The notes under the pieces were generated by a model. It searched no databases, was not told where the DNA came from, and worked only from the letters and a program-made list of their open reading frames with translations. Source: an uncultured Streptococcus sp. (GTDB lineage: Bacteria; Bacillota; Bacilli; Lactobacillales; Streptococcaceae). Taken from it: a stretch of 64,000 nt of DNA. The position numbers and the translations under genes are program-made. How positions within the stretch are numbered: position 1 is the first letter of the stretch; each line of letters starts with the position of its first letter. Positions 13,353 through 28,629 of this stretch are shown here, piece by piece. The stretch spans positions 18,853 to 82,852 of the forward strand of contig CAUSOG010000002.1 in assembly GCA_963533195.1 (NCBI GenBank), given 5' to 3'.

Positions 13353-13482
13353 GTTGTGGGCTAGTTTATGAGCAGGAGCTTATCTGTGCAAGTTAAAAAG
13401 CCTTGGAGATAAGGCTTAATAGTAGTTTCAATTTTGAGATTTCATTTAATTCTTTTCTTTTTCCAAATTGATATTCCAACCC

Positions 13483-13920
13483 TTATTCAGTATTATTCTT
13501 GTTCATATACCAACTTGGGACTAATCGGTTCATATAATCATACCATTCTAAAATTTCCTTAGCTTGATTTTGCATTACTGATACTTCTTCTTCTCCATAA
13601 GGAATAGCCCATGGAAGAGCTCCAATTAAGTTACTTAGAATGTAAACGGCAAGAAGTTTCCAAAATAAATCTGGAACTTTGTCATCAAAATATCCATTTA
13701 TCATACCTGATGCAAAAGAGGGAGATACTTGAGCTGACCACACAATACGATTGAACTCCTCCCAAGGATCTCCAAAGTCAAAACGATCAAAATCAATCAC
13801 ATAAATCTCACGATCCTCTCCAATCATGAAATTCCCAATATGATAATCACCATGTTGCAAAACTTGGGGTCTATTTTTTAGCAGTTCACGGTTTTCGTTC
13901 AAAAAATCAATGAAGACCTG
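13483..13920 (-). pseudogene. 5'-truncated aminoglycoside-phosphotransferase-family kinase
   Basis: Retains HGDYHIGN and IDFDR motifs; frame reads QVFIDFLNENR back to ~13920, then meets an in-frame TAA; N-lobe absent. Confidence 0.8.
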
Positions 13921-13984
13921 ATGTTAGTATGATTGGAGTTCTGTCAATATTTTGGACACATAGAAAAGGAACAATGTATTCTTA

Positions 13985-15610
13985 CTAAACCAAGTCGTTT
14001 AAGTCGATACATTCATCAAACAAAGATGCTAGTTCATCATTCAAATGATGAGTTACAAATAGTACTGTCTTACCCCTATCTTTTAAAATATCACGTTCGA
14101 TTTCCTTTCGAATTTGTTCGTCAATTGCAGACGTTCCCTCGTCAATAAGCCAGATTGGTTTGTCCTCTAAAAATAACCTTGCTAGCATAATTCGTTGCTT
14201 CTGACCAGTGGAAATATCAAGTTTAGTTTCAGATAAGATAGTATCTAAACCTTGAGGTAATGTATCAATCCAGTCCTTCAAATAGACCCGTTCTAAGACG
14301 CTATCTATATCTGATTTTTGTATACTTTTACCAAGGGTTAAATTGAAAAATAGTGATTCGTTGAATATATGATCATCAGAAGAAATATAGCTTATGCTCT
14401 CTTGTAAATTTGACAATGAACATTTCTCCGAATTATTGCTGATAAAATAAACATTTCCTTTTGTGGGATGTAATTCTTGATTAATTATCTTTAATAATGT
14501 TGATTTACCAATACCTGATTTTCCAATCATTGCATATTTACGATTAGCACAAAACTTCAATGAAAGATCACTAAATATTGATGAGTTGCTTCGTTCTAAC
14601 GATATATTATCTAAGATAATGCTCCCATTTAATTTTCTACCTTCAAGTGGTAACGAATTATCTACTTCTACTTCACGCCATTCACTATCAATATTTTCAA
14701 ACTTTTCAAAAATTTTATTTACTGACTTGAATTCTGCATAGTTTGCAGTTAGACCAGTCAAACCTGCAAAAATTATTGACGAAAAATACTGTGATGAAGA
14801 TACACCTCCCAGAGGGATTAGTTTAAGGAAATAAAGGCAACCTGCATGAATTAAAATAGCGATTTGACTAATAAAACTTGTACCATTTTGAACAGCCATT
14901 AAACCACCTAAAGTTTTAGCATAATTTATTTTTGCAACTGAATACCTATTCGCAAAATTAATAATTTTTGAAGTCATGAAAGAAATCTTATTATTATTCT
15001 TTAAATTCCTATAGCCCGATAATACGTCATCTACCGCTTGAACTAATTCTTCATTTTTTTCGGAAAAAATCAGAGCATTCTTATCCAGTTTTGAAGTAAA
15101 AATTTTTGGTAGTTTTATCATCGTAATAAGGAAAACTGTAATCGTGAACAACAACGAAAAATGAAAACTAAGAAATGCAATAATTGCAAACAATATATTT
15201 AGTGATTGCATTAACATTAGCTCTAATGTTTCAAATCCAAGATCACTTATTGTCTTAATATCATTTGTCATCCATGATAAGTAGGTAGACTTGCTTTTTT
15301 TCTCGTAATTTTCAATCCCTGCTTCTTCTAATTTTAATGAAATATCTTTTCTTATCTCATTACACATGGCTTGAATAGCTTTTTCATTTGCTTTTGAACC
15401 TTGATAAATTTGAACCACCCACAATATATTTACTAACAAAATTGCGGTACTGTAAATAATAAACTCTCTCAAGTTAAAATTTACCAGTGTTGTTATTGCT
15501 CTGGCACTAAGCATTCCATTTAAAAACACACAGAGTGAATTAATAAAAATCCAAAACAGCCAAATTAAATTTTCTTTCTTACATCTAATTAGATATGTCC
15601 TAATATTCAA
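13985..15610 (-). CDS. ABC exporter (TMD+NBD), LanT-like, no C39 peptidase domain
   Basis: N-terminal TM segments, GKSGIGKST, ISTGQKQR signature, LIDEGTS; TTG start overlaps lanC stop. Confidence 0.88.
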   Translation of the reverse strand: MNIRTYLIRCKKENLIWLFWIFINSLCVFLNGMLSARAITTLVNFNLREFIIYSTAILLVNILWVVQIYQGSKANEKAIQAMCNEIRKDISLKLEEAGIENYEKKSKSTYLSWMTNDIKTISDLGFETLELMLMQSLNILFAIIAFLSFHFSLLFTITVFLITMIKLPKIFTSKLDKNALIFSEKNEELVQAVDDVLSGYRNLKNNNKISFMTSKIINFANRYSVAKINYAKTLGGLMAVQNGTSFISQIAILIHAGCLYFLKLIPLGGVSSSQYFSSIIFAGLTGLTANYAEFKSVNKIFEKFENIDSEWREVEVDNSLPLEGRKLNGSIILDNISLERSNSSIFSDLSLKFCANRKYAMIGKSGIGKSTLLKIINQELHPTKGNVYFISNNSEKCSLSNLQESISYISSDDHIFNESLFFNLTLGKSIQKSDIDSVLERVYLKDWIDTLPQGLDTILSETKLDISTGQKQRIMLARLFLEDKPIWLIDEGTSAIDEQIRKEIERDILKDRGKTVLFVTHHLNDELASLFDECIDLNDLV

Positions 15611-16785
15611 CTTATGTCTCCTCTACAATTTATACCAAAAATCTCTTCACCAATAATTCTTCTTTTAAATTTGAGCGATAGAGCAACCAGTGCGATACCA
15701 AGTTTACCATCTAGTATTCCCCATTCGCTATATTCTGATAAAACCTCATTTTCAAAATAGTTTGATTCTATTAATTTTACAAATTCCTCTGATTCATCAG
15801 ACGTAATAACATCACAACACGAATAGAACGTGCCAGACAACCCATGACAAAAACTAACATTATTGGTTTTCTTTCTGCATCTAACTAATCTTTGAGCTTC
15901 ATCCAAAAGCATATTTAAAAGACTATCTTTAATCACATAATCATTATTTTTTAAAAAAATATAATGACCATACAGTCCATAACACCATGAATAATTTATA
16001 GTATCACTAGAATATATTGGAGTTATATTCATTTTTTCGTCTACTGTAATGTATTCCGAAATTCTAAAACTTAAGTTACTAAATCGTTTATAAACATTCT
16101 CAATAAAACTCAAACTATATCTATAAAAATTGATATTAGAGAAATCAAAAAATGTGAGTGAATTAAAAAGCGAAATAATTCCATGCGACATACCAAAATT
16201 TATAGGAATAGCCTCTTTGGAACGATTTTTAAAACTTTGTTGTCCTTCTTCTACTGTTGTCGCTATTTCATAAATTCTCAATTTATCAAAAATTTCTATT
16301 ATTTTTCCCATCAAATCATCCGGGAGACTGAACTGCCGATTATAGTTTTTTAAAGATGTAAAATAGATTAGTCCTCCCGCTAGTCCATAAATTATATCCA
16401 CATTATAGCAACTTTGAAAATCTTCTATCTTATCCTCCACAAAAGTTCTAATGATACTTTCAGCAACTAAATTTAATTCTTGTGATAAATATTCAAATAT
16501 TTTGTTATTTGAATACTTACACCATAAATTTAATACAAAAGCAAAACCTAGCGGACCAGACCATAAGCCTCTATTTTCCCTATTTACAACCAAATTTAGG
16601 TTCATTTTTCGTATTACACTAATAGCAAGTTCTTCGTAGTATATATCCTTATCTATTGAATATAGATTAAGTAGTAACAACAAGTATCCTGAAGCACCAT
16701 TTAGTAGAGAAATATCTTCAAAATTAGAAAAATTCTCTAAACAATCCTTAATTGATATCAATTCTAATTCCGTTTTTTGCCGCAT
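15607..16785 (-). CDS. lanC: Lanthionine cyclase LanC
   Basis: GMSHG, WCYG and FCHG (catalytic His and Zn ligands), repeated GxxG motifs; GAGG RBS inside lanB 3' end. Confidence 0.92.
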   Translation of the reverse strand: MRQKTELELISIKDCLENFSNFEDISLLNGASGYLLLLLNLYSIDKDIYYEELAISVIRKMNLNLVVNRENRGLWSGPLGFAFVLNLWCKYSNNKIFEYLSQELNLVAESIIRTFVEDKIEDFQSCYNVDIIYGLAGGLIYFTSLKNYNRQFSLPDDLMGKIIEIFDKLRIYEIATTVEEGQQSFKNRSKEAIPINFGMSHGIISLFNSLTFFDFSNINFYRYSLSFIENVYKRFSNLSFRISEYITVDEKMNITPIYSSDTINYSWCYGLYGHYIFLKNNDYVIKDSLLNMLLDEAQRLVRCRKKTNNVSFCHGLSGTFYSCCDVITSDESEEFVKLIESNYFENEVLSEYSEWGILDGKLGIALVALSLKFKRRIIGEEIFGINCRGDIS

Positions 16786-19627
16786 TAAGTACCTCTAAAA
16801 TATAGTTTCTATACCTAAATTCTAAATCTAAGTCACCAAATAATCTATTGAAGTGCATATGTAATAGACTATCCGCTAGCTGTTCGTATGGGACTGTTCG
16901 CAGATTTATTATTGATTTCAGTAAATCTTTACACTCTTTATATGATTTCAACCCTTGACATCTAGAATAATAGTTATTATTTCTCAATTCAGACTTTATT
17001 AAGTTAGCTTCAGATTTATCTAATTTATCGGATTTTTGTCGGAAAATAAATTCCTGATTTTCTATTTTATCTAAGAAAAGTTGTAATAAACCTATCGCTA
17101 CATAAACATTAAGACTTTTGAACTCAGTGTTGCTTAAACTTCCTTTTAATTTTAAAATATCTAAACATAACTTAGAATCCACCATAAAGAATTTTTCAAT
17201 TAAGTTATAATTGCCAGCTCCGTATCTTTCATACTCTCTCTCGTAGGGGCAAATAGAATAGTCATCAATGTACTCTAAAGTTAATGCTATACTAATAAAA
17301 GAAAAGACTTCTTGTAGAGAATTAGTACCATTCCCATGAAGATATATCCTCAACCTGATGTGTGGTCTATCATCTTGATACCTTATATAGAACCAATTAG
17401 AAATACTATTTGTTGAAACATAATCAGCTATGTACTCTAAAAGATAATTTTGTAAATTTTTAGAACAATATAATTTAACATAAAACCACCCTTCACCATC
17501 CAAAAGACTTTGAAATCTATCTTTATTATCTATAACAGGATTAATACGGTAATCACTAGCCTTTATATTATTATCAAATAAAGTAACTGTTAATTCAGAA
17601 GCAAATCTACCTTCTGGGGATCTACCATATATAAATCCTAAATCTTCATAAATTTCAATCATCTCCTCCCTTCTAAAGATTTCTTCCAATAATTCCATAT
17701 CTAGACGTCTAGTTATATCTAGGTTCAATATTTGATCATTTATTGCTAAAGCAAACTGACTAGGTACACCGATTCTATTTAAAAATTCCAACAAAGATTC
17801 AGAAGAACTCTCTTTATATAGCTTTTGATACAATGTCCACTTCTCAGGTATAATAATAATATTATTGAAAACAATTCTTTTTTGATGTAAAGGTGATAAT
17901 GATTCTAATTTTGATAAAAAGCCACCTATTCGATCGGTCTGTGAGTTAAGTAAACCTAAAAATTTTATATAATCATTGCTCAAATCTAAGTTCATCATAC
18001 CTCTCATATCCACAATGATTCTATTCCCACTATTATCATGTAAGTAAAATTCATAATTGCTTGATATTCCAACATATACATCTGATAAAGATAAATCCAT
18101 ATCGTTATTCTTATATGTGTTGATAATTATATTATTTTTATAGCGATTCTTATTTGCTGTAACTATATTCTTTATCTTTTTATCTTTGGGATAGTATATG
18201 ATTCCATGAGTAAAAGAGGGAATTTCATTCAACTCTAGAAAATCAAATCGCCCATGATAACCTCTTGGAGTCCTAGAATACGCTGAACGTCCTAACGAAA
18301 ATATAATGTTTTTATCACTACCATATATGTTAAAATTCAAATCGAATCCTCTTATATTTTCATTACGATTTGCATTTTTTAACTTTGCTAAATTAAATAC
18401 TTCTTCTTCATCAAATTCATACAAAGCCTTTAAATCATCTTCCCATAACTTTTCTTCTCTTAGATTTTGATCAATTACAATATCCTTACTAAATGGAGAA
18501 CCTAGTCCTTTAATATCATCAAATAATTCAACAAGATTTACAGACTTATAATAACCATATCGCTCAGAGAATATGTCCTTATATTGTTCAAGCTGGACTC
18601 TGTCTCTACTATAGGACTTATTAAAATCAGACATAACAAAATCCGCAAATTTTGTTATATTTCGAATTTTATCATTTGATAATGAAATTGAGTTTTCAGT
18701 TGATAACTCTTCATTGATTATATATTTTTCAGAAATGTCTATCTCTTGTAATAGATAATCTATTTTTTCTAAAATATCTAGACTTTTACTTTTAGAATAT
18801 GAATCCATTAATTCCAAAAGACTACCTAAGTATTCAATAGATTTTAAATGTTTACGTGATGTCTCTATAAGTCGCAAGACAGTGTCAATATTCATATCAA
18901 GAGGATATATATTGAGAATTATAAGCTTTTGTTTAAGAAGCTCTTTTAGAAAATCTATTACCAACGATTCGGAATATTGCGGGAATTCAGAAGTTAAAAG
19001 AATAATCAAATCTGATAACGTATAACTGTTCTTCGTTAAAGAATCAATAAGCAAGTTTAGCACATCATTTTTGTAAAAGTATAATCTATTTCCCTCACTT
19101 GCATCTTCAATAATCGATGGTAGATAAAAATCAAAAAAGTTTCTTCTATTTTGTGTTGCAGCGTTCAAATAACACTTCAAATAACTTTTTTTAAAATCTA
19201 ATATATCCAATATTTCATAGTAAAAATAATCTAAAATTTCGGGCGCTAAATATATATGACTTCTTGTCTTTCCTAATATTTTTAAACAATCTTGACCTGA
19301 TTTTTTATGTAAACTCGCCTTACCAATCTTTGCAAAACTTCCAAACGGAGTTGCTCTATAGGCTGCTCTTAATATATATTTATAAAGTGATAGACAAATT
19401 TTTCTTTGTTTTTTAATACTATACTTTCTAATATTTTGCAAATTCGAAATAAACACTGGTGAGGCTATATAGATTGCTTTTTTTAATTCTTCGTTTACTA
19501 ATACTTGATTAACCAGATGAATATAATCTTCTTTTACGAAGTAATGGTCTAATTCTGGTATCAATTTCTCTATATCGTTAATATGGAAATTACTTACTCT
19601 TACTATAGCATCATTGGATATTATCAT
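16748..19627 (-). CDS. lanB: Class I lanthipeptide dehydratase LanB
   Basis: 959 aa; YILRAAYRATPFGSFA, WFYIRYQDDRPHIRLR, YEREYERYG, LLHMHFNRLFG. Confidence 0.95.
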   Translation of the reverse strand: MIISNDAIVRVSNFHINDIEKLIPELDHYFVKEDYIHLVNQVLVNEELKKAIYIASPVFISNLQNIRKYSIKKQRKICLSLYKYILRAAYRATPFGSFAKIGKASLHKKSGQDCLKILGKTRSHIYLAPEILDYFYYEILDILDFKKSYLKCYLNAATQNRRNFFDFYLPSIIEDASEGNRLYFYKNDVLNLLIDSLTKNSYTLSDLIILLTSEFPQYSESLVIDFLKELLKQKLIILNIYPLDMNIDTVLRLIETSRKHLKSIEYLGSLLELMDSYSKSKSLDILEKIDYLLQEIDISEKYIINEELSTENSISLSNDKIRNITKFADFVMSDFNKSYSRDRVQLEQYKDIFSERYGYYKSVNLVELFDDIKGLGSPFSKDIVIDQNLREEKLWEDDLKALYEFDEEEVFNLAKLKNANRNENIRGFDLNFNIYGSDKNIIFSLGRSAYSRTPRGYHGRFDFLELNEIPSFTHGIIYYPKDKKIKNIVTANKNRYKNNIIINTYKNNDMDLSLSDVYVGISSNYEFYLHDNSGNRIIVDMRGMMNLDLSNDYIKFLGLLNSQTDRIGGFLSKLESLSPLHQKRIVFNNIIIIPEKWTLYQKLYKESSSESLLEFLNRIGVPSQFALAINDQILNLDITRRLDMELLEEIFRREEMIEIYEDLGFIYGRSPEGRFASELTVTLFDNNIKASDYRINPVIDNKDRFQSLLDGEGWFYVKLYCSKNLQNYLLEYIADYVSTNSISNWFYIRYQDDRPHIRLRIYLHGNGTNSLQEVFSFISIALTLEYIDDYSICPYEREYERYGAGNYNLIEKFFMVDSKLCLDILKLKGSLSNTEFKSLNVYVAIGLLQLFLDKIENQEFIFRQKSDKLDKSEANLIKSELRNNNYYSRCQGLKSYKECKDLLKSIINLRTVPYEQLADSLLHMHFNRLFGDLDLEFRYRNYILEVLNAAKNGIRIDIN

Positions 19628-19641
19628 AAAATCTCTCTCCT

Positions 19642-19713
19642 AAAAAAGTATCTATTCTTAGTTATACAAATAATATATTACTATTTGTTAATAACAAGAA
19701 CAGATACTTTTTT
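19642..19713 (-). terminator. Long hairpin plus U tract between precursor gene and lanB RBS
   Basis: AAAAAAGTATCT.TTCTT.GTTAT..ACAAATA / TATTTGT..ATAAC.AAGAA.AGATACTTTTTT imperfect inverted repeat. Confidence 0.75.
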
Positions 19714-19773
19714 CTTTTTTCTCAATTTACCAGATTGCAATAAATTTTGAAAATCATTTAAAATTGCAATTTT

Positions 19774-19908
19774 TTAATGACAGCTTGGTGTTGAAGAACA
19801 TCCACCTGAACCGCCTGTATGCTTCACTCTCTGTTCTGATTGTCCAATAGACAATGTTTTAGTATCAATTTTAAGTGTTACTAACAACTCGTTTTTTACA
19901 TTTTCCAT
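19774..19908 (-). CDS. Lanthipeptide precursor LanA (44 aa; not in ORF track)
   Basis: AGGAGG RBS; MENVKNELLVTLKIDTKTLSIGQSEQRVKHTGGSGGCSSTPSCH*; Cys-free leader and Ser/Thr/Cys-rich C-terminus; immediately upstream of lanB. Confidence 0.9.
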   Translation of the reverse strand: MENVKNELLVTLKIDTKTLSIGQSEQRVKHTGGSGGCSSTPSCH

Positions 19909-19966
19909 CTGGAATACCTCCTATATTTTTTTAAAACTATGTGAGCAATCTGTTTTCTACCATAGC

Positions 19967-20010
19967 TTTCCACTAAGTATTAATCTGATTACGTTAATAT
20001 TTAGTGGAAA
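19967..20010. repeat. 17-bp inverted repeat between pheromone gene and lanA
   Basis: TTTCCACTAAGTATTAA-N10-TTAATATTTAGTGGAAA, one mismatch. Confidence 0.8.
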
Positions 20011-20055
20011 ACCAGGGGAATAATTTAATTATTACATCTCCCCAATATTTCCTAT

Positions 20056-20184
20056 CTATTTAGTTTGACCATTAGCTGGACCTGGATCAACCCCATTATA
20101 GACTGAAGATCGTGTAATAGGACTCCTTACAAATGCAAAAGAGAGCAACAAAGTAATAATAAAGAATTTAGATAAGCGTTTCAT
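20056..20184 (-). CDS. PhrA-like RRNPP signalling peptide precursor (42 aa; not in ORF track)
   Basis: AAGGAG RBS; MKRLSKFFIITLLLSFAFVRSPITRSSVYNGVDPGPANGQTK*; basic plus hydrophobic signal-like N-terminus; C-terminal NGVDPGPAN parallels PhrA SNGLDVGKAD. Confidence 0.82.
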   Translation of the reverse strand: MKRLSKFFIITLLLSFAFVRSPITRSSVYNGVDPGPANGQTK

Positions 20185-20212
20185 CGTAACTGCTCCTTAA
20201 TTTGTTTTCTCA

Positions 20213-20241
20213 ATTATAGCTCAGTAAAAACATTTTGTCAA
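20213..20241 (-). promoter_or_regulatory. Consensus sigma-A promoter of the pheromone/lan operon
   Basis: TTGACA (20241-20236), 17-nt spacer, TATAAT (20218-20213). Confidence 0.85.
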
Positions 20242-20422
20242 TTATTTTTATAGCTATTTCTTATATTTTTTTTTTTTTTATGCACATATTGCATGTGGAT
20301 TGGTGTGTTAAATCAATTTCGATATACTAAAACGGTGAGTAAGAGAAAAATAGTAAGTAAAGTTTAATATGAGTCTCAATTCATGGGCAACACCACTCTC
20401 ATAAAATACAACAAAAAATCAA

Positions 20423-22349
20423 GAGTCTGGGACAATAGTCCCTTTGCTACAAAAAAAGCAACGGATTTTTTTCGTTGCTTTTTGCATGGTTGCGATGGTC
20501 TTGCTAAAATGGAATTGCTCAATTAAACATTTAGAAAGGCTATCCCATGCACATTCACTATAACAAAATTCAAACGACTTTACCACTAGAACTTGCTTGC
20601 ATTTTACCACAATACCATATTGTCTTTACCATGGAAAAAGTGGTGAATGCCTTGAAGTAATGATGATAGAAAATATCGCCATGCAGTACTTAACAGGACA
20701 GTTGCTTGTCAGTTACCACACCGTCAATCGCTTTCGAGTCGCTGTGGGGATGGAAAACCTCATTCGTGATCTTTTCATTGACCTCAATCTTCGTTTAAAA
20801 TTAGAAGAGTTTGTGACTTTATACTTAACAAAAATCTAAATTGTACGTATAATTGAAGTATGACAAAAACAACATTTACTCCAGCGGACAAAACACTTCT
20901 CACAGAAGCACTCAAAGATAAGAAAAACGTGCGTTTTCATAAACGCATTCAGTGTGTGCTATTTCGGATAGACGGCTTAAGCTATCGCAAAATCGCCGAA
21001 TTAACAGGGCTTTCCCCTCAAACGGCTTCCAATCAAGTGTAGCGCTACCAAGACCAAGGACTAGCTGCACTCTTAACAGACAAGCGTGGTGGGAGCTTCC
21101 GTTATTACATGACTCATGATGAAGAGATTGATTTTCTTGCAGAGCAGTTCAAGAAGGCGAGCGAAGGTGAGTGGTTAACCATTAAATCTCTTCACGAAGC
21201 CTATCAAGCCAAGATTGGTAAGAAAACGACTAGAGAGGGATTTTATGCTCTTCTCAAGCGACATGGTTGGCGAAAAATTATCCCCAGACCGGAACATCCA
21301 CAGAAAGCAGACGCTCAAGCAATTGTGACGTCTAAAAATAAAATCCTTGTACGAGAGCACATGCAAACGATTGCCTCATAAAAGAGTGCGACTGCTTTAC
21401 CAAGACGAGGCCGGATTTGGACGAATTAGTAAACCAAGTGCTTGTTGGGCTCCAAAAGGAATCAGACCCAATGTTCCTTGTCACCATGTTCGTGAATTTC
21501 GCTATTGTTATGGAGCCGTCGATGCGCATACAGGAGATGCCTTTTTCATCATTGCAGGCGCTTGTAACACCGCTTGGATGAACGAATTTTTACAGCAATT
21601 ATCTGCCTATTATTCTGATAGTTACCTGATTTTGGTCATGGATAACGCTACATGGCACAAGTCTCAGGCTTTGGATTTGCCAGAAAATATCGAGTGTACA
21701 TTTATTCCTCCCTACACGCCAGAAATGAATCCCATTGAGCAAGTTTGGGCGGAGATACGAAAGCGTGGATTCAAAAACAAGGCCTTCAAATCTCTAGAAG
21801 AAGTCATTTTGAAGTTAGAAGCAGTGATTCGAAACTTAGAAACAGAGTTTCTGAGGAGGATTGTTCACAGAAAGTGAATTTGTCCAGAATAGATTTTTGG
21901 TGAGTATTAGATTGTCTGTTTATTGATGGCACTATGATTGAAGCCAACGCCAACAAGTATAGTTTCGTATGGAAAAAGGCCACAGACAAGTTTTCCGTCA
22001 AACTTCAAGAACAGATACAGGTCAATTTCCAAGAAGAAAAATCACCCCCCTTATCCATCAGGCGATTGCGCTGGATGAAAAAGAACCTATTGCCTCAGAA
22101 CAGTTGACCGAGTTCGCTCAACGTAAGATTGATGCGGAACCTGTCTTTGGGCAGATAAAGGCTTGTTTGGGTTAAAAGAGATGTAATCTGAGAGGTAAGC
22201 GTCAAGTGAAAATTGACATTAGTTTAGTGCTCATGACCAATAATCTCCTTAAATACAATAAGAAAACGGTTCAAAATTAAAAAGCTAAAGTTCACATAAT
22301 TGGGAACCTTTAGCTTTTTTGTGACTGAGAACTATTTTGTCTCAGACTC
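20423..22349 (+). mobile_element. Degenerate IS1182-family element interrupted by an IS630-family element
   Basis: Terminal IRs GAGTCTGGGACAA / TTGTCTCAGACTC; fragments MHIHYNKIQTTLPLE, YHTVNRFR, DCLFIDGTMIEANANKYSFVWKK, QRKIDAEPVFGQIK; internally deleted. Confidence 0.85.
20822..21906 (+). mobile_element. IS630-family insertion sequence (transposase pseudogene)
   Basis: IRs TACTTAACAAAAATCTA / TAGATTTTTGGTGAGTA flanked by TTA; HTH ORF with in-frame TAG at 21040-21042; DDE ORF with QDEAGFG, MDNATWH, PPYTPEMNPIEQVW. Confidence 0.9.
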
Positions 22350-22405
22350 GTGAAATATTTTTTTCTCAGACTTTTCTATATACTCTTAATTCTTACAAAA
22401 TAGCA

Positions 22406-23293
22406 CTATAGAGACGAAAAATTTTCATACAAGTATCTACTTAACTCTAAACTCATCTTCTCGTTGTTAGCTAGTTGAAAAAGAAACTGTGATCGCTGAT
22501 AATATGCTTTTACCTGTTCTTTCTCGTGAAACCCTTCGCTAATATTACCTAATAAACAGTATAATTCTGCCAATAGGAACCTCGACTGATAGTCGTTACA
22601 GACCTCAATAGTTTCAAGAGTTTCTATAATTGCCTGCTCTGTTCTATTACCTAACAACCATAATTGCCTACAATAATTATATCTAATTTTGATTAAGTTC
22701 TTAAAGTTCTCTATTTTAGATAAATCGCTTCTTTTCAACTCAGCCACTATTTCTATAAACTCTTGTTCTAATTCTATAAAGTTTGAACCCTTTCCTTCCA
22801 ATAAAAAATTTAATAATGTATTCTTTAGATACAGATGAGAGTCTATTTGACTACCTATTTGAGAAATTATTTTTCTCAATTTTTTCAAACCCTCTTTTTG
22901 TTTTTTATCATAATAGAACAAAACTAACGATTCAACCCAAGTAAGATATATTTTATCAGAAAGAGAATATTTTATCGATTTTTGAGTAGATAATTCCAAA
23001 TCAAGTATATACTTAACTGAGGCAAAATCCTGTAATTCAATGTGTTTTTCTAATATTTCTTTCAATTGTGTAACCTGAGAAGTCTCTACACTAATTGTCT
23101 TATCATAAAAATAGTCTAATGTAACATCTAATCTCTGAGCCAGTGAATGTAATAAATCTGAATTTGGAACATATTTCCCCTGTTCAATTCTACTAATTTT
23201 AGCCTGCTCACATAATCCCTGAGCAAGTTCACTTTGTGATAAATGAAGCTCTAAACGACGCTCTCTCATTCTAGTTGCTAGTAAACTATTCAC
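22406..23293 (-). CDS. TprA/PlcR-like RRNPP transcriptional regulator (XRE HTH plus TPR-like helices)
   Basis: RRLELHLSQSELAQGLCEQAKISRIEQGKYVPNSDLL..LDYFY; 295 aa, helical C-terminus; GTG start with AAGGAG RBS. Confidence 0.85.
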   Translation of the reverse strand: MNSLLATRMRERRLELHLSQSELAQGLCEQAKISRIEQGKYVPNSDLLHSLAQRLDVTLDYFYDKTISVETSQVTQLKEILEKHIELQDFASVKYILDLELSTQKSIKYSLSDKIYLTWVESLVLFYYDKKQKEGLKKLRKIISQIGSQIDSHLYLKNTLLNFLLEGKGSNFIELEQEFIEIVAELKRSDLSKIENFKNLIKIRYNYCRQLWLLGNRTEQAIIETLETIEVCNDYQSRFLLAELYCLLGNISEGFHEKEQVKAYYQRSQFLFQLANNEKMSLELSRYLYENFSSL

Positions 23294-23595
23294 ATATTAC
23301 TCCTTATATTTGATTTAGTACAGTTAACTACTGCCAAAGCCTAAGCTATACACTTAGAATAAGTCATTATGAAACAAGCTCACCTGCCAGTGAGTTTGGA
23401 CTTGTGGAGATTACCTAGTATAAGACGCGACAACACCTCCATCATTCATGTCATTAAAATTCCTCAGAATCCCACCTTGTTGACTAAAAATAACTTCTCA
23501 TTTCATGAGAATAAGCTATGTCAAACTTGATTTTCCTTAATTTTTAGTTAACTTTATACTTAGTTTTTATTTAACTCAATTATACAACATTTGCT

Positions 23596-25494
23596 CTACC
23601 AAATTTTAACTCTATCAATTTCACATCTCCACATAGAATCTCCTTGAGCAACTCCAAATGTATCATGAAACTCCTTAAGATTAGATAGTGGGACATTAAC
23701 TCTTTCCTCATTTGGAGAATGAACATCTAAAACTTCTTGAATTTCTCCATACTCCTTATTCAATATCGAGCGATGACATCTTGCAAAGGTTGTAAAGAAA
23801 TCTTCCAAACTATACTCTTCTCTACCCATCAATGAATTAAGTGAACAAATCAATCCTGCTAAGTCAGCTATATCTTCAGAAATAGTCATCTTATTAACTA
23901 AATTTTTATCTTTTACAAGATATTGTTTATTGAGTTTGCTAGAAATTTTCATCAACTCTTGATAATCAGAATCTAACCACCAGCTTCCTCTATTCCCATC
24001 CGAATCAAACATTGAACCATTTAAGTCAAAAGCATGTGAGATTTCATGTGCAATCAGAGTTCCTAAGCCACCATAATTTTGAGACAAAGTATAGTCAGTC
24101 GAAAAAAATGGTTCATTAAGTATCGCAGCTGGAATAATTATCATATTTCTTCTAAAATCATATAAAGCATTTACTGTATGTGCTGAAATACTCCACTGAT
24201 TTCTATCAGTTGGTTTATTCCATTGTTTCCACATATAGCTAATAGAATTTGCGAGAATCATTTGTATATTTTCAATTAAAGTTTTATCCAAATTTATTTT
24301 TTTAAATTGATATGTAGGTGGCAAATTACTTGGCTTCCCAACTTGAATATTCATTTTATCTAATTTTTCTAAAGTTATTTTTTTAGTACTAGCTGATAAC
24401 CAAGTATTTGCTAAAAGCTCTTTTCTATACTCTTCTATAAGATCTTCAACTATTCTTTCAACTCTTAAAAAAATATCCTTTGAAAAAAAATTATCTGCAT
24501 ACCAATTTCCTATAGCTTGCATATATAAAGACTGTGCTAAATAGAATGCTTCCTTATCTTTCTTTCTTACTTCTTTGATTCCGTAAAGGTATCTTCCAAA
24601 TTCACCAGAAGAAATGCGAATCTCTTCAGTTAGATAAGCAGCGTAAGTAAGGATAACCTGATAAATCAGCAATGATTTTATATATTTCCAGTTCTCAGAA
24701 CAAAAAATTTTTCTTGAATTTTTCCAAAACTTCTCTTCAGCTACTATGATAACATCAGGTATTTCTCCTATTAAATTATAAAAGTATCTTCCAAAATCAA
24801 TTTCTTCATTCCAACTATTGAACTCAGAGAAGGGGTATATATTATATATTTTGTTATAATCGGACATTTCTTCTTTAGAAATATTTAACTCAGATACTAT
24901 TCTATCTAAATAGATAATATCATCCAGCATGCTCTCTGCTTCTTCTAATTCGAATCCAAAATTTGAAATTAATTTAAGCTGGCATTGTTTCCATTTTTGA
25001 ATTAGATTATTGCCATATTGATATTGATCTGTATAAAATAGTGTATCTGGCAATATAGTTTTTAGTCCCCAAGCCCAAAGTACATTTGTATTTGACTTTT
25101 TAAAATCTGGCTCAATTGAAAATGGCATTAAAGATGGATTACCAGATAACTCTAACTCAGGTAATTTGGCAATAAAATCAGCAAAGCTCTCTATGCCTTG
25201 ATACAAATCTAAAATTTTTTTAATTGGCTCTATGCCAATCTTATCTCTTTTTTCAAAGTCAGATATGAGTGTATAGTATTTAATAAATTCAACCATGTAA
25301 TCATCACTAGCAATAAGTTCAGTCATATTTGTAAAACTATCTTGAGATACAGACAAAAGCTTTTGAATTTTTTTTTCAATATCTACTTGAATTTCTGTAA
25401 ATGAATCCATTTCAGCTAAATCAGATGGTATTATGGCCGACTTTTCCCACTTCTCATTTACAAATCTATAAAAATTATTATTTGCAGTCATCAT
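23596..25494 (-). CDS. M13 family zinc endopeptidase (PepO/neprilysin-like), island-borne
   Basis: NFYRFVNEKW, VNALY, HEISHAFD, EDIADLAG, DVHSP; no signal peptide; AT-rich. Confidence 0.92.
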   Translation of the reverse strand: MMTANNNFYRFVNEKWEKSAIIPSDLAEMDSFTEIQVDIEKKIQKLLSVSQDSFTNMTELIASDDYMVEFIKYYTLISDFEKRDKIGIEPIKKILDLYQGIESFADFIAKLPELELSGNPSLMPFSIEPDFKKSNTNVLWAWGLKTILPDTLFYTDQYQYGNNLIQKWKQCQLKLISNFGFELEEAESMLDDIIYLDRIVSELNISKEEMSDYNKIYNIYPFSEFNSWNEEIDFGRYFYNLIGEIPDVIIVAEEKFWKNSRKIFCSENWKYIKSLLIYQVILTYAAYLTEEIRISSGEFGRYLYGIKEVRKKDKEAFYLAQSLYMQAIGNWYADNFFSKDIFLRVERIVEDLIEEYRKELLANTWLSASTKKITLEKLDKMNIQVGKPSNLPPTYQFKKINLDKTLIENIQMILANSISYMWKQWNKPTDRNQWSISAHTVNALYDFRRNMIIIPAAILNEPFFSTDYTLSQNYGGLGTLIAHEISHAFDLNGSMFDSDGNRGSWWLDSDYQELMKISSKLNKQYLVKDKNLVNKMTISEDIADLAGLICSLNSLMGREEYSLEDFFTTFARCHRSILNKEYGEIQEVLDVHSPNEERVNVPLSNLKEFHDTFGVAQGDSMWRCEIDRVKIW

Positions 25495-25671
25495 ATCTCC
25501 TTGAGTTTTGATAAAATTTTCAGATACAATCTTATCATAAAAGAATTAACAAAGCAACAAAATAGAAAATATAGATATACTTTTTCAAAGAAATATGTTA
25601 AAATAAACAAAACAAATCTCTATTTATTTAAAAATAATATATCAAAAAACAAGAAAGTAGTGTTATAGACA

Positions 25672-26628
25672 ATGATTAGTGCTTTTTCAATTGACGATAA
25701 AAAAAGTAACATCGCTCGAATTATTTCTGAACACCGTAGTGAATACATACTCGGATTTCAAAATAATGATACCCAAAAAATCCGCAAACTTAGTTTAAAA
25801 AATCAGCTTTATCATATAGGAGACTTTATTAAGTATTCTGTTATAAATAACTCTATTTCAAATATAGAATTGTTACCTCGGAAAAATGTAATTTGTAAAT
25901 CTAGTAATACAACTAAAAAAAGCTATAACTTCTCTGAATCTAATCAAATTTTAGCCACAAATGTTGATCAACTCTTTATATTTATTCCTCTTGATAAAAA
26001 TTTTTCTCTGTCAAAAATTGAAAGATATATTTTAGTCTTTTCTCAACAAAATGTTAATGTAACAATTGTGCTAAGTAAAAAGGATCTTTTTTCAAATTAT
26101 AAAGAATATCTGTCTAAAGTTAAACAATTATATCCTAAGATTAATATTTGTCCTATCAGTTTATATGACGAATTATCTATCAAAAAATTCAAAGAATTAC
26201 TAATTCCTGGTAAAACAGGTATGTTTATTGGCTCATCAGGAGCAGGAAAATCTAGTTTACTTAATCACCTACAAACAAATTATACTGCAAGAGTTAATAA
26301 TGTTCGAAATGACTATAAGGGAAAACACACAACAACTAGTAGTTTAATCATTTTCTGTCCAGAGATAGAATACAATATTATTGATACTCCTGGTTTTAAA
26401 GGTATTGATACAACTTTAGATATTGATAAGAAAATATTGTTTGAAGAAATAGAGGAATGTGCTAAATATTGTAAATTTAACGATTGCTTACACCTTACTG
26501 AACCTAAATGTGCAGTAAAAGAAGCGGTCAAAAATAATATTATTAGACCAGAAATACTGGAAAGATATCACTATAACATTAAAAAGCTCGAATTATTATC
26601 TAAAAGAAGAGCCAGCTGGAGATTATAA
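25672..26628 (+). CDS. RsgA-family circularly permuted GTPase, probable accessory paralog
   Basis: ATNVDQ, SKKD (G4), GSSGAGKSS (G1), GKHTTT, DTPG, CKFNDCLHLTEPKC zinc finger. Confidence 0.9.
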   Translation: MISAFSIDDKKSNIARIISEHRSEYILGFQNNDTQKIRKLSLKNQLYHIGDFIKYSVINNSISNIELLPRKNVICKSSNTTKKSYNFSESNQILATNVDQLFIFIPLDKNFSLSKIERYILVFSQQNVNVTIVLSKKDLFSNYKEYLSKVKQLYPKINICPISLYDELSIKKFKELLIPGKTGMFIGSSGAGKSSLLNHLQTNYTARVNNVRNDYKGKHTTTSSLIIFCPEIEYNIIDTPGFKGIDTTLDIDKKILFEEIEECAKYCKFNDCLHLTEPKCAVKEAVKNNIIRPEILERYHYNIKKLELLSKRRASWRL

Positions 26629-26677
26629 TTTACAAAAACACACTCACAGTTGCCTCATCAAAAACTTTAATTGCTTA

Positions 26678-26730
26678 ATTTCAACTATTAGGAAAGAATT
26701 TAAAAATTGTACTTTCCTAATAGTTGAAAT
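26678..26730. terminator. Perfect 19-bp inverted repeat after the RsgA-like gene
   Basis: ATTTCAACTATTAGGAAAG-N15-CTTTCCTAATAGTTGAAAT. Confidence 0.7.
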
Positions 26731-26926
26731 ACAAAAGCTTCTAGAGAATGAACTGAATTACTATGAAAAACTGTTTTCCTTTTTGCTGTAGGGTACTTTG
26801 AATTTTTAAAAAAATTCAAATAATGGGATTGATAAAATGAAAAAAGCTATTAGAATATTTGATATTTTAGGGGAAGAACATTTGAAAATTCAATACAGTG
26901 AACACTATGCTAATCTCATAAATTAA
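26712..26926 (+). pseudogene. C-terminal remnant of an Rgg/GadR/MutR-family regulator
   Basis: Across two A-run frameshifts reads FLIVEIQKLLENELNYYEK/TVFLFAVGYFEFLK/NSNNGIDKMKKAIRIFDILGEEHLKIQYSEHYANLIN*. Confidence 0.65.
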
Positions 26927-27164
26927 AAATTTTATATCGTTGTACTTACCAACAATGAATTCAAAGATCATACCATTATCCAGTTTCTCTCTTATTACAA
27001 GAGACAGTATTTACTTATCCTCGGGAAACTCTTTATTACAGTATTATTTTTTTTACCTACTAGTAGTCTATGGTAATAAAACCACATATTTTAATCAAGT
27101 TTTCAGTATTATTCCAATAACCTCAACTTGAGTGCTCGCTTTTATACATCCCCACCACAAAGCA

Positions 27165-27188
27165 AAAAGCCTTGCAATCAAGGCTTTT
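27165..27188 (-). terminator. Intrinsic terminator after rlmD
   Basis: AAAAGCCTTG-CAAT-CAAGGCTTTT. Confidence 0.75.
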
Positions 27189-27213
27189 CATTATCCCTTT
27201 CGTTCAAAGGTTT

Positions 27214-28629
<1,416 letters not shown>

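Follow-up and report, generated by a model that had tools for sequence, protein, structure and literature searches.

The window, i.e., the whole stretch of 64,000 nucleotides of Streptococcus DNA that we analysed, carries a low-GC island at the 3' end of a gene which, named from a reading of its sequence, appears rumA-like (Table 1). GC content across the island is about 27-39% in 2-kb windows, versus 45-50% for the genes to its right, and in the related genome G012 the segment 13418-27220 is replaced by ~5 kb of different DNA. The island carries a whole cassette comprising a PlcR/Tpr-family regulator gene, a 42-codon ORF and the genes lanA, lanB, lanC and an ABC exporter. The same cassette occurs in S. 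caprae at ~92% DNA identity, adjoining a relaxase-like gene and without the IS elements found here. These lie between the regulator gene and the ORF and consist of an IS1182-family remnant with an IS630 nested inside it; a public contig joins 20818 directly to 21907, the edges of the IS630, and the remnant replaces exactly a 53-bp stem-loop (z -8.9) that is found 3' of the regulator gene in S. caprae. The 180 nt 5' of the -35 box of the ORF's promoter were left intact. At the left edge of the island lies a truncated phosphotransferase gene (APH-family domain, PF01636; 13483-13902, minus strand).

Table 1. Features of the island and its cassette (positions are those of the window).
Feature	Position	Strand	Basis or remark
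Low-GC island carrying the whole cassette, at the 3' end of a rumA-like gene	13418..27220	.	GC, comparison
ABC exporter, 541 aa	13985..15610	-	Pfam
lanC cyclase, 392 aa, PF05147	15607..16785	-	Pfam
lanB dehydratase, 959 aa, PF04738 and PF14028	16748..19627	-	Pfam
Long stem-loop with U-run, between lanA and the lanB RBS	19642..19713	-	folding, z -5.9
lanA precursor, 44 aa; predicted core HTGGSGGCSSTPSCH after K30, two Cys	19774..19908	-	alignment of alleles
Stem-loop between pheromone gene and lanA, 18 bp, without U-tail	19964..20013	-	folding, covariation
Putative pheromone precursor gene (Phr/PapR type, tandem DPG subclass), 42 aa	20056..20184	-	ORF, alignment, HMM
Predicted mature region GVDPGPANGQTK, G31-K42; N-terminus inferred	20059..20094	-	allele conservation, tail-length statistics
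Predicted N-terminal export signal, basic and hydrophobic, residues 1-19	20128..20184	-	hydropathy, family alignment
Shine-Dalgarno AAGGAG, spacer 8 nt to ATG	20193..20198	-	sequence
Sigma-70 promoter TTGACA-17-TATAAT, 12/12	20213..20241	-	A-tracts 5' of -35, as in family
IS1182-family remnant with nested IS630 (20819-21906)	20422..22349	.	domains, comparison
PlcR/Tpr-family HTH regulator, 295 aa, likely cognate receptor	22406..23293	-	domain search, PlcR match, tree
Extra M13 (PepO-like) peptidase, upstream of regulator	23596..25494	-	domains; HEISH motif present

The cargo of the cassette has the make-up of a class I lanthipeptide cluster, namely a LanA with Ser/Thr and Cys residues, a LanB, a LanC and an exporter. 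No peptidase domain was among the Pfam matches of the ABC exporter, and neither a LanP nor an immunity gene was recognised among the island ORFs scanned. A search of 1.84 billion representatives gave two close clusters for lanA at 50% identity, which include sequences from S. caprae, S. parasanguinis and S. intermedius; a third match, to a repetitive 1288-aa protein, was disregarded. While the leader is variable, the 14-residue core H-T-G-[GA]-S-[GN]-G-C-S-S-T-P-S-C is near invariant and was kept at three loci (this window, L001 9587-9721 and L065 11782-11910), although LanB is 43% identical. Scanning metagenomes with LanB returned one partial locus, which ended within lanB and short of the pheromone gene, and the core pattern had 0 matches in viral contigs. 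A literature search with two words of the lanA core found no relevant paper. The lanthipeptide appears to be undescribed and probably holds more novelty than the rest of the locus.

The ORF at the head of these genes was found much as the earlier note had described it. It has 42 codons with an AAGGAG ribosome-binding site at a spacing of 8 nt, a perfect consensus promoter (20241-20213), a basic N-terminus (MKR..K) followed by a hydrophobic segment (peak 11-residue hydropathy 2.77), and a position upstream of lanA, which starts at 19908, 147 nt downstream. An HMM built from 17 homologs, with the window and S. caprae rows left out, placed the ORF at the top of the 50,620 small-ORF starts of the genome (E 1.8e-6), with the next unrelated ORF at only E 1.2, and an ending of the form [GE][IVF]D[PT]G was unique to this ORF within that set. 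Frame, length and stop are conserved in the S. caprae copy, which carries five synonymous and four non-synonymous codon changes, and likewise in 16 close alleles. The gene had been called unannotated; the identical protein is present as a called CDS in NCBI, ENA and Logan sources and the S. caprae copy (WP_380427796.1) is labelled 'hypothetical protein', so that the ORF is unnamed rather than uncalled. Pfam and NCBIfam contained no family matching the ORF or lanA, and eight weak matches of the 19-member family alignment, each from a single member, were disregarded.

The promoter of the ORF is the sole 12/12 site within 18000-22000, a region in which sites of at least 9/12 were, overall, about as frequent as chance predicts (18 observed, 18.2 expected). 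Near-consensus promoters (10-12/12) stand just 5' of 19/19 genes of the family when the best site within 130 nt is chosen. A run of ~15 A (20264-20279, minus strand), 25-40 nt 5' of the -35 box, is also present in S. caprae and in genome G097, and could be either an UP element or a length-variable tract. The direct repeat ATAATTGA[CG]AAAA across the -35 and -10 boxes is more poorly conserved in S. caprae and is not claimed here as an operator; no palindrome over the promoter was among the 25 longest inverted repeats listed. Whereas a cre site has been reported for the TprA locus, none was found near this promoter: with a cre consensus pattern and up to two mismatches, none of the 42 matches (63 expected) fell within 19600-22400.

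On the minus strand between the ORF and lanA we found no promoter of at least 9/12 and no terminator-like site, which makes co-transcription of the two genes plausible from the sequence. The 18-bp hairpin in this interval had z scores of -4.2 to -5.6 in three cassettes and a constant base (TTTCC...GGAAAGCTATG). Both sides were changed in 5 of its 18 pairs, a count as high as this arising in 7 of 500 shuffles, with the covariation resting on the same three sequences from which the structure was derived. It is a candidate RNA processing or stability element, while the long stem-loop ahead of lanB is likely a partial terminator or mRNA stabiliser. Three RNA runs (match shares of 0.04) left the ORF uncovered and gave one contig of depth 2 over lanA. 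The order regulator-pheromone-hairpin-lanA-lanB-lanC-ABC recurs in G097, where LanB is just 43% identical, the peptide ends GIDPGPANFK, the lanA core is the same, and the regulator is 40% identical and belongs to another clade.

The regulator aligns with PlcR across residues 6-275 (E 3.5e-15) and is the sole full-length homolog found in the genome, in which three other matches are HTH-only. It retains N158 and N206, which are invariant in 26/26 aligned regulators, together with K202 and R209, which are common to most regulators of the DPG class and are R and H in TprA. We take N158, K202 and N206 to correspond to peptide-binding residues of PlcR. Conversely, it deviates at Q88, E243 and S285, positions conserved in most other regulators. 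The regulator gene lies 2225 nt from the ORF, compared with 431 nt in S. caprae, where a 92% identical regulator stands 5' of the ORF without IS; the gap of 2.2 kb is due to insertion of the nested IS elements, which S. caprae lacks, and may lead detectors that rely on distance to miss the pair of regulator and peptide. In the tree, TprA-type proteins formed a 100/100 clade, with the window regulator outside it, among the tandem class, and 34-37% identical to the TprA-clade proteins sampled. Its nearest relatives accompany DPGV[VI]H or DPGELY peptides, and it stands apart from the regulators of other DPGPAN peptides, that of G097 included; an AU test gave p 0.024 against its joining the PAN clade, a group picked after the tree had been inspected. 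Prediction of a complex between the regulator and precursor residues 13-42 (26-row alignment) scored 0.02, which speaks neither for nor against binding. The protein encoded at 22406-23293 is likely the receptor for the peptide. Identity with MutRS was considered and rejected, MutR being described as an Rgg homolog (PMC11848300) whereas the regulator here matches PlcR and the peptide matches the PapR rows of PMC12445099; SpoV is, by context, unrelated.

To place the locus in its family, we searched 401 Streptococcus genomes with the regulator. Matches at E <=0.001 were obtained in 237, many of them HTH-only, and the neighbourhoods of 46 distinct regulator sequences were examined. Two layouts were seen. 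At three loci the peptide gene is divergent and its product ends LD[VL]GKAD, i.e., the TprA/PhrA type; among the PhrA-type loci sampled, 3/3 with a peptide found had it divergent and ending G-K-A-D. At the remaining loci with a recognisable peptide, the gene lies downstream on the same strand and encodes a core G[IVF]D[PT]G plus a tail. The window ORF belongs with the latter, since its gene follows that of the regulator in tandem and its DPG stands ~7 residues from the C-terminus. A profile of 19 peptide rows matched 61/401 genomes. Of 66 family matches, 52 followed a listed PlcR/Tpr regulator on its own strand at a distance of up to 2.5 kb (median 208 nt), and 0 lay on the strand opposite one; as the pairing used the best 150 of 486 regulator matches, the other 14 peptides are not thereby orphans. 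For many related regulators no peptide gene could be recognised. At loci L008, L020, L022-L024, L026, L027, L033, L034, L038, L040 and L041 a near-consensus promoter is kept downstream, but no gene for a DPG peptide turned up within 700 nt; loss of the peptide gene seems common among these relatives. Judged by sequence and gene layout, the ORF is a member of the widespread tandem G[IV]DPG subclass of Tpr/Phr systems and not a PhrA pherotype, and the tandem G[IVF]DPG subclass is PapR/TprA-like and likely of the TprB/C type.

Members of this branch are already in print. PMC12445099 lists PapR/TprA-like precursors ending NGIDPGPANIMVK, GRIDPGPAHSMVS and DRIDPGPANLF in S. thermophilus and S. salivarius, with regulators 37-42% identical to TprA. 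Like the window ORF, they are 42-48 aa long with a basic and hydrophobic N-terminus and (N)G[IV]DPGPAN followed by a short tail; unlike it, their tail is IMVK or LF in place of GQTK, and the locus here has a separate regulator lineage and class I lan cargo. The C-terminal peptide of the NGIDPGPANIMVK precursor was detected by LC-MS/MS in S. thermophilus (PMC12445099); the systems are otherwise predictions, and the available text of that paper reports no functional test. In pneumococcal strain TIGR4, PhrB and PhrC are ~80% identical to each other and <25% to PhrA (PMC11323143). Since S. pneumoniae proteins ending GIDPGPANFI or GIDPGPANGQAL belong to the same precursor family as our ORF, we infer from the reported levels of identity that they are PhrB and PhrC; TprB/PhrB and TprC/PhrC differ from the present system in having other cargo and no more than ~30% precursor identity and 38-40% regulator identity to it. 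TprA and TprA2 hold lanthipeptide loci repressed until C-terminal peptides release them (PMC5436883; PMC7595303), and repression of lanthipeptide or bacteriocin loci with divergent encoding is likewise described in PMC4873490, PMC6753895 and two 2025 bioRxiv preprints. The TprA/PhrA and TprA2/PhrA2 systems share with ours a PlcR-family regulator, a C-terminal D-x-G peptide and an adjacent lanthipeptide cluster under control, but have divergent genes, peptides ending G-[KL]-A-D and lanM-type cargo. The PlcR/PapR system of the Bacillus cereus group resembles the window in its tandem order of regulator and peptide, its full-length regulator similarity and its C-terminal peptide with a central proline, the active PapR form being the C-terminal heptapeptide (PMC2441798); it differs in that PlcR activates a global regulon, the heptapeptide has a FEF core and identity is low. 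The available portions of PMC11848300, PMC8117530, PMC9765709, PMC13234698 and PMC11954270 contain nothing specific to this pheromone locus.

Taken together, the analysis suggests that the peptide would be exported, re-imported and sensed by the regulator at 22406-23293, switching on a pheromone-lanA-lanB-lanC-ABC transcript (probability about 0.78). The elements of an RRNPP system are in place, i.e., an adjacent PlcR-homologous HTH-TPR regulator and a short precursor with a conserved C-terminal motif. The genome encodes one RseP/Eep and seven PF00496 oligopeptide-binding proteins above the cut-off, and the presence of Opp/Ami was judged on these binding proteins. The N-terminal signal would take the precursor out of the cell via Sec and/or PptAB-Eep; cleavage would then probably yield a C-terminal peptide of ~10-12 residues, most likely G31-K42 with its tail retained; and Opp/Ami would bring the peptide back in to bind the TPR groove of the regulator. 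As to the sign of control, we lean slightly toward a regulator that represses the promoter as TprA does, with the peptide lifting repression, over activation as in PlcR, because a perfect consensus promoter makes repression more likely and because the near-consensus promoters of the whole family favour derepression, as for TprA. Once bound, the peptide would induce both the gene that encodes it and the lan genes, the two hairpins would raise lanA mRNA relative to lanB and lanC, and cells would thereby likely be able to switch on the lanthipeptide genes at high cell density. The positive feedback that had been ascribed to co-transcription with lanA would come instead from the peptide inducing its own promoter. 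The earlier note is supported in taking the ORF for a pheromone precursor of secreted type, here of the Tpr/Phr (PlcR/PapR) kind, at the head of a class I lan operon, and a PlcR-like regulator does lie in its vicinity. The PhrA pherotype is not supported, trimming is not implied, and the likely receptor had not been named.

An alternative, in line with the first proposal, is a PhrA-type pherotype whose trimmed core, (N)GVDPGPAN, would be the active form, a carboxypeptidase or the M13 peptidase of the island having cut off GQTK. This we regard as unlikely, although 5 of 10 positions of the NGVDPGPAN region are identical to SNGLDVGKAD, the C-terminal decapeptide of PhrA (PMC11323143), and an AU test did not reject grouping of the regulator with TprA in a sister position (p 0.12, 21 of 46 rows). 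Positions 1, 5, 8 and 10 are invariant in PhrA alleles (bioRxiv 2025.12.10.693483), but the window peptide keeps D5 alone and differs at the other three; moreover, the aligned stretch is internal and lacks the terminal Asp, and the genes are tandem instead of divergent. Nor is the Asn of NG-x-D conserved, residue 30 being Asn in 3, Lys in 12 and Arg in 1 of the 16 close alleles (K/R in 13/16), whereas GQTK and GVDPGP are each kept in 15/16; these alleles are kin, some from single metagenome contigs. The DPGPAN core itself was known before, NGIDPGPAN-type precursors being tabulated already in PMC12445099. As for the extra C-terminal trimming read into the GQTK tail, four residues are the family norm: 60 of 98 homologs, the window ORF included, end exactly seven residues past DPG (the motif being absent in 5/98), and 43 of 52 DPG[PA]AN peptides have a four-residue tail of highly variable sequence. 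Trimming is therefore not implied, and a constant length with a variable sequence fits a retained, perhaps specificity-bearing, tail better than a trimmed one. Across the family, however, tail lengths span 2 to >10 residues, and natural two-residue tails (FI, FK, FF) in 5/52 DPG[PA]AN peptides indicate that four residues are not needed family-wide, so that trimming or dispensability is conceivable. An extra M13 peptidase on the island would suit trimming, but the 20 kb examined at the G097 cassette contain none, and for S. thermophilus the detected peptide corresponds, by its description, to the precursor's C-terminus (PMC12445099).

Since G097 shares the lan cargo and its order but has a regulator from another clade, regulator and cargo have likely been reshuffled, and this is the main source of residual doubt about the pairing of peptide and regulator. 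At its extreme, a pheromone-lan block might have recombined behind a regulator of other specificity, or been uncoupled from it by IS, leaving little peptide control and a perfect promoter that drives lan. The differing nearest relatives of regulator and cargo, the IS between regulator and pheromone with loss of the stem-loop, and the loci elsewhere that lost the peptide gene and kept the promoter would fit such a decayed module. We nevertheless hold it to be quite improbable, because regulator, pheromone and lan genes are intact and together in S. caprae at 92% DNA identity, their cluster members share longest-contig sizes, consistent with the same contigs, and the 180 nt 5' of the -35 box are undisturbed. 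Least probable by far is that the ORF encodes a small membrane or leader peptide serving lanthipeptide export, immunity or translational control, and not a diffusible signal. A single hydrophobic helix, first place in the operon and an island with no recognisable immunity gene would be in keeping with it; against it, homologs track the regulator and not the cargo (the peptide family occurs in 61/401 genomes, this LanB at >=43% identity in 3/401), and conservation within the precursor family is limited to the C-terminal DPG motif.

At 22406-23293 in the window and at L065 12492-13364, the same pheromone core and lan cargo go with two regulator lineages, 40% identical, which points either to shuffled modules or to two different pockets that can read a single core.

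The pheromone is a further allele of the published tandem DPG branch, and the peptide-controlled lan operon of the preferred reading, in which the regulator senses the tailed C-terminal peptide, is an ordinary design. What the locus supplies is a peptide that may serve to induce a rare cluster of class I lanthipeptide genes, the lanA core of which we did not find in print. In addition, the natural tail series GQTK, GPSK, FK and GKAL offers a handle on tail use, specificity and repression versus activation in the DPG subclass, matters for which we found no test of TprB/C-type systems in the available text of the published sources. A broader picture, which we put forward only speculatively and think rather doubtful, is that tandem DPG-tail systems form a functionally uncharacterised branch of PlcR signalling in streptococci with an 11-12-residue pheromone, in which the shared DPGPAN core would serve cross-species talk (pneumococcus, mitis group, S. 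suis, S. thermophilus) and the variable four-residue tail would be the address. In the window, a distinct regulator lineage would then read this core and drive an undescribed, near-invariant two-ring lanthipeptide that, because no immunity gene was recognised, may be a signal or host-acting molecule and not an antibiotic, and the M13 peptidase might mature it or quench the pheromone.

The M13 peptidase is one of three in the genome. Together with a divergent RsgA-like GTPase it occupies 23596-26628; both genes also occur in S. caprae, whereas neither flanks the cassette of G097. The peptidase might quench the pheromone or remove the leader; a literature search on a leader-protease role of M13 enzymes in lanthipeptide maturation returned nothing relevant by title. 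Finally, three close alleles (P0006, P0132 and P0166) have changes inside the core (GPVD, GPAD, VYPG) and are possibly pherotype variants of the cassette or, in the rarer ones, sequencing errors.
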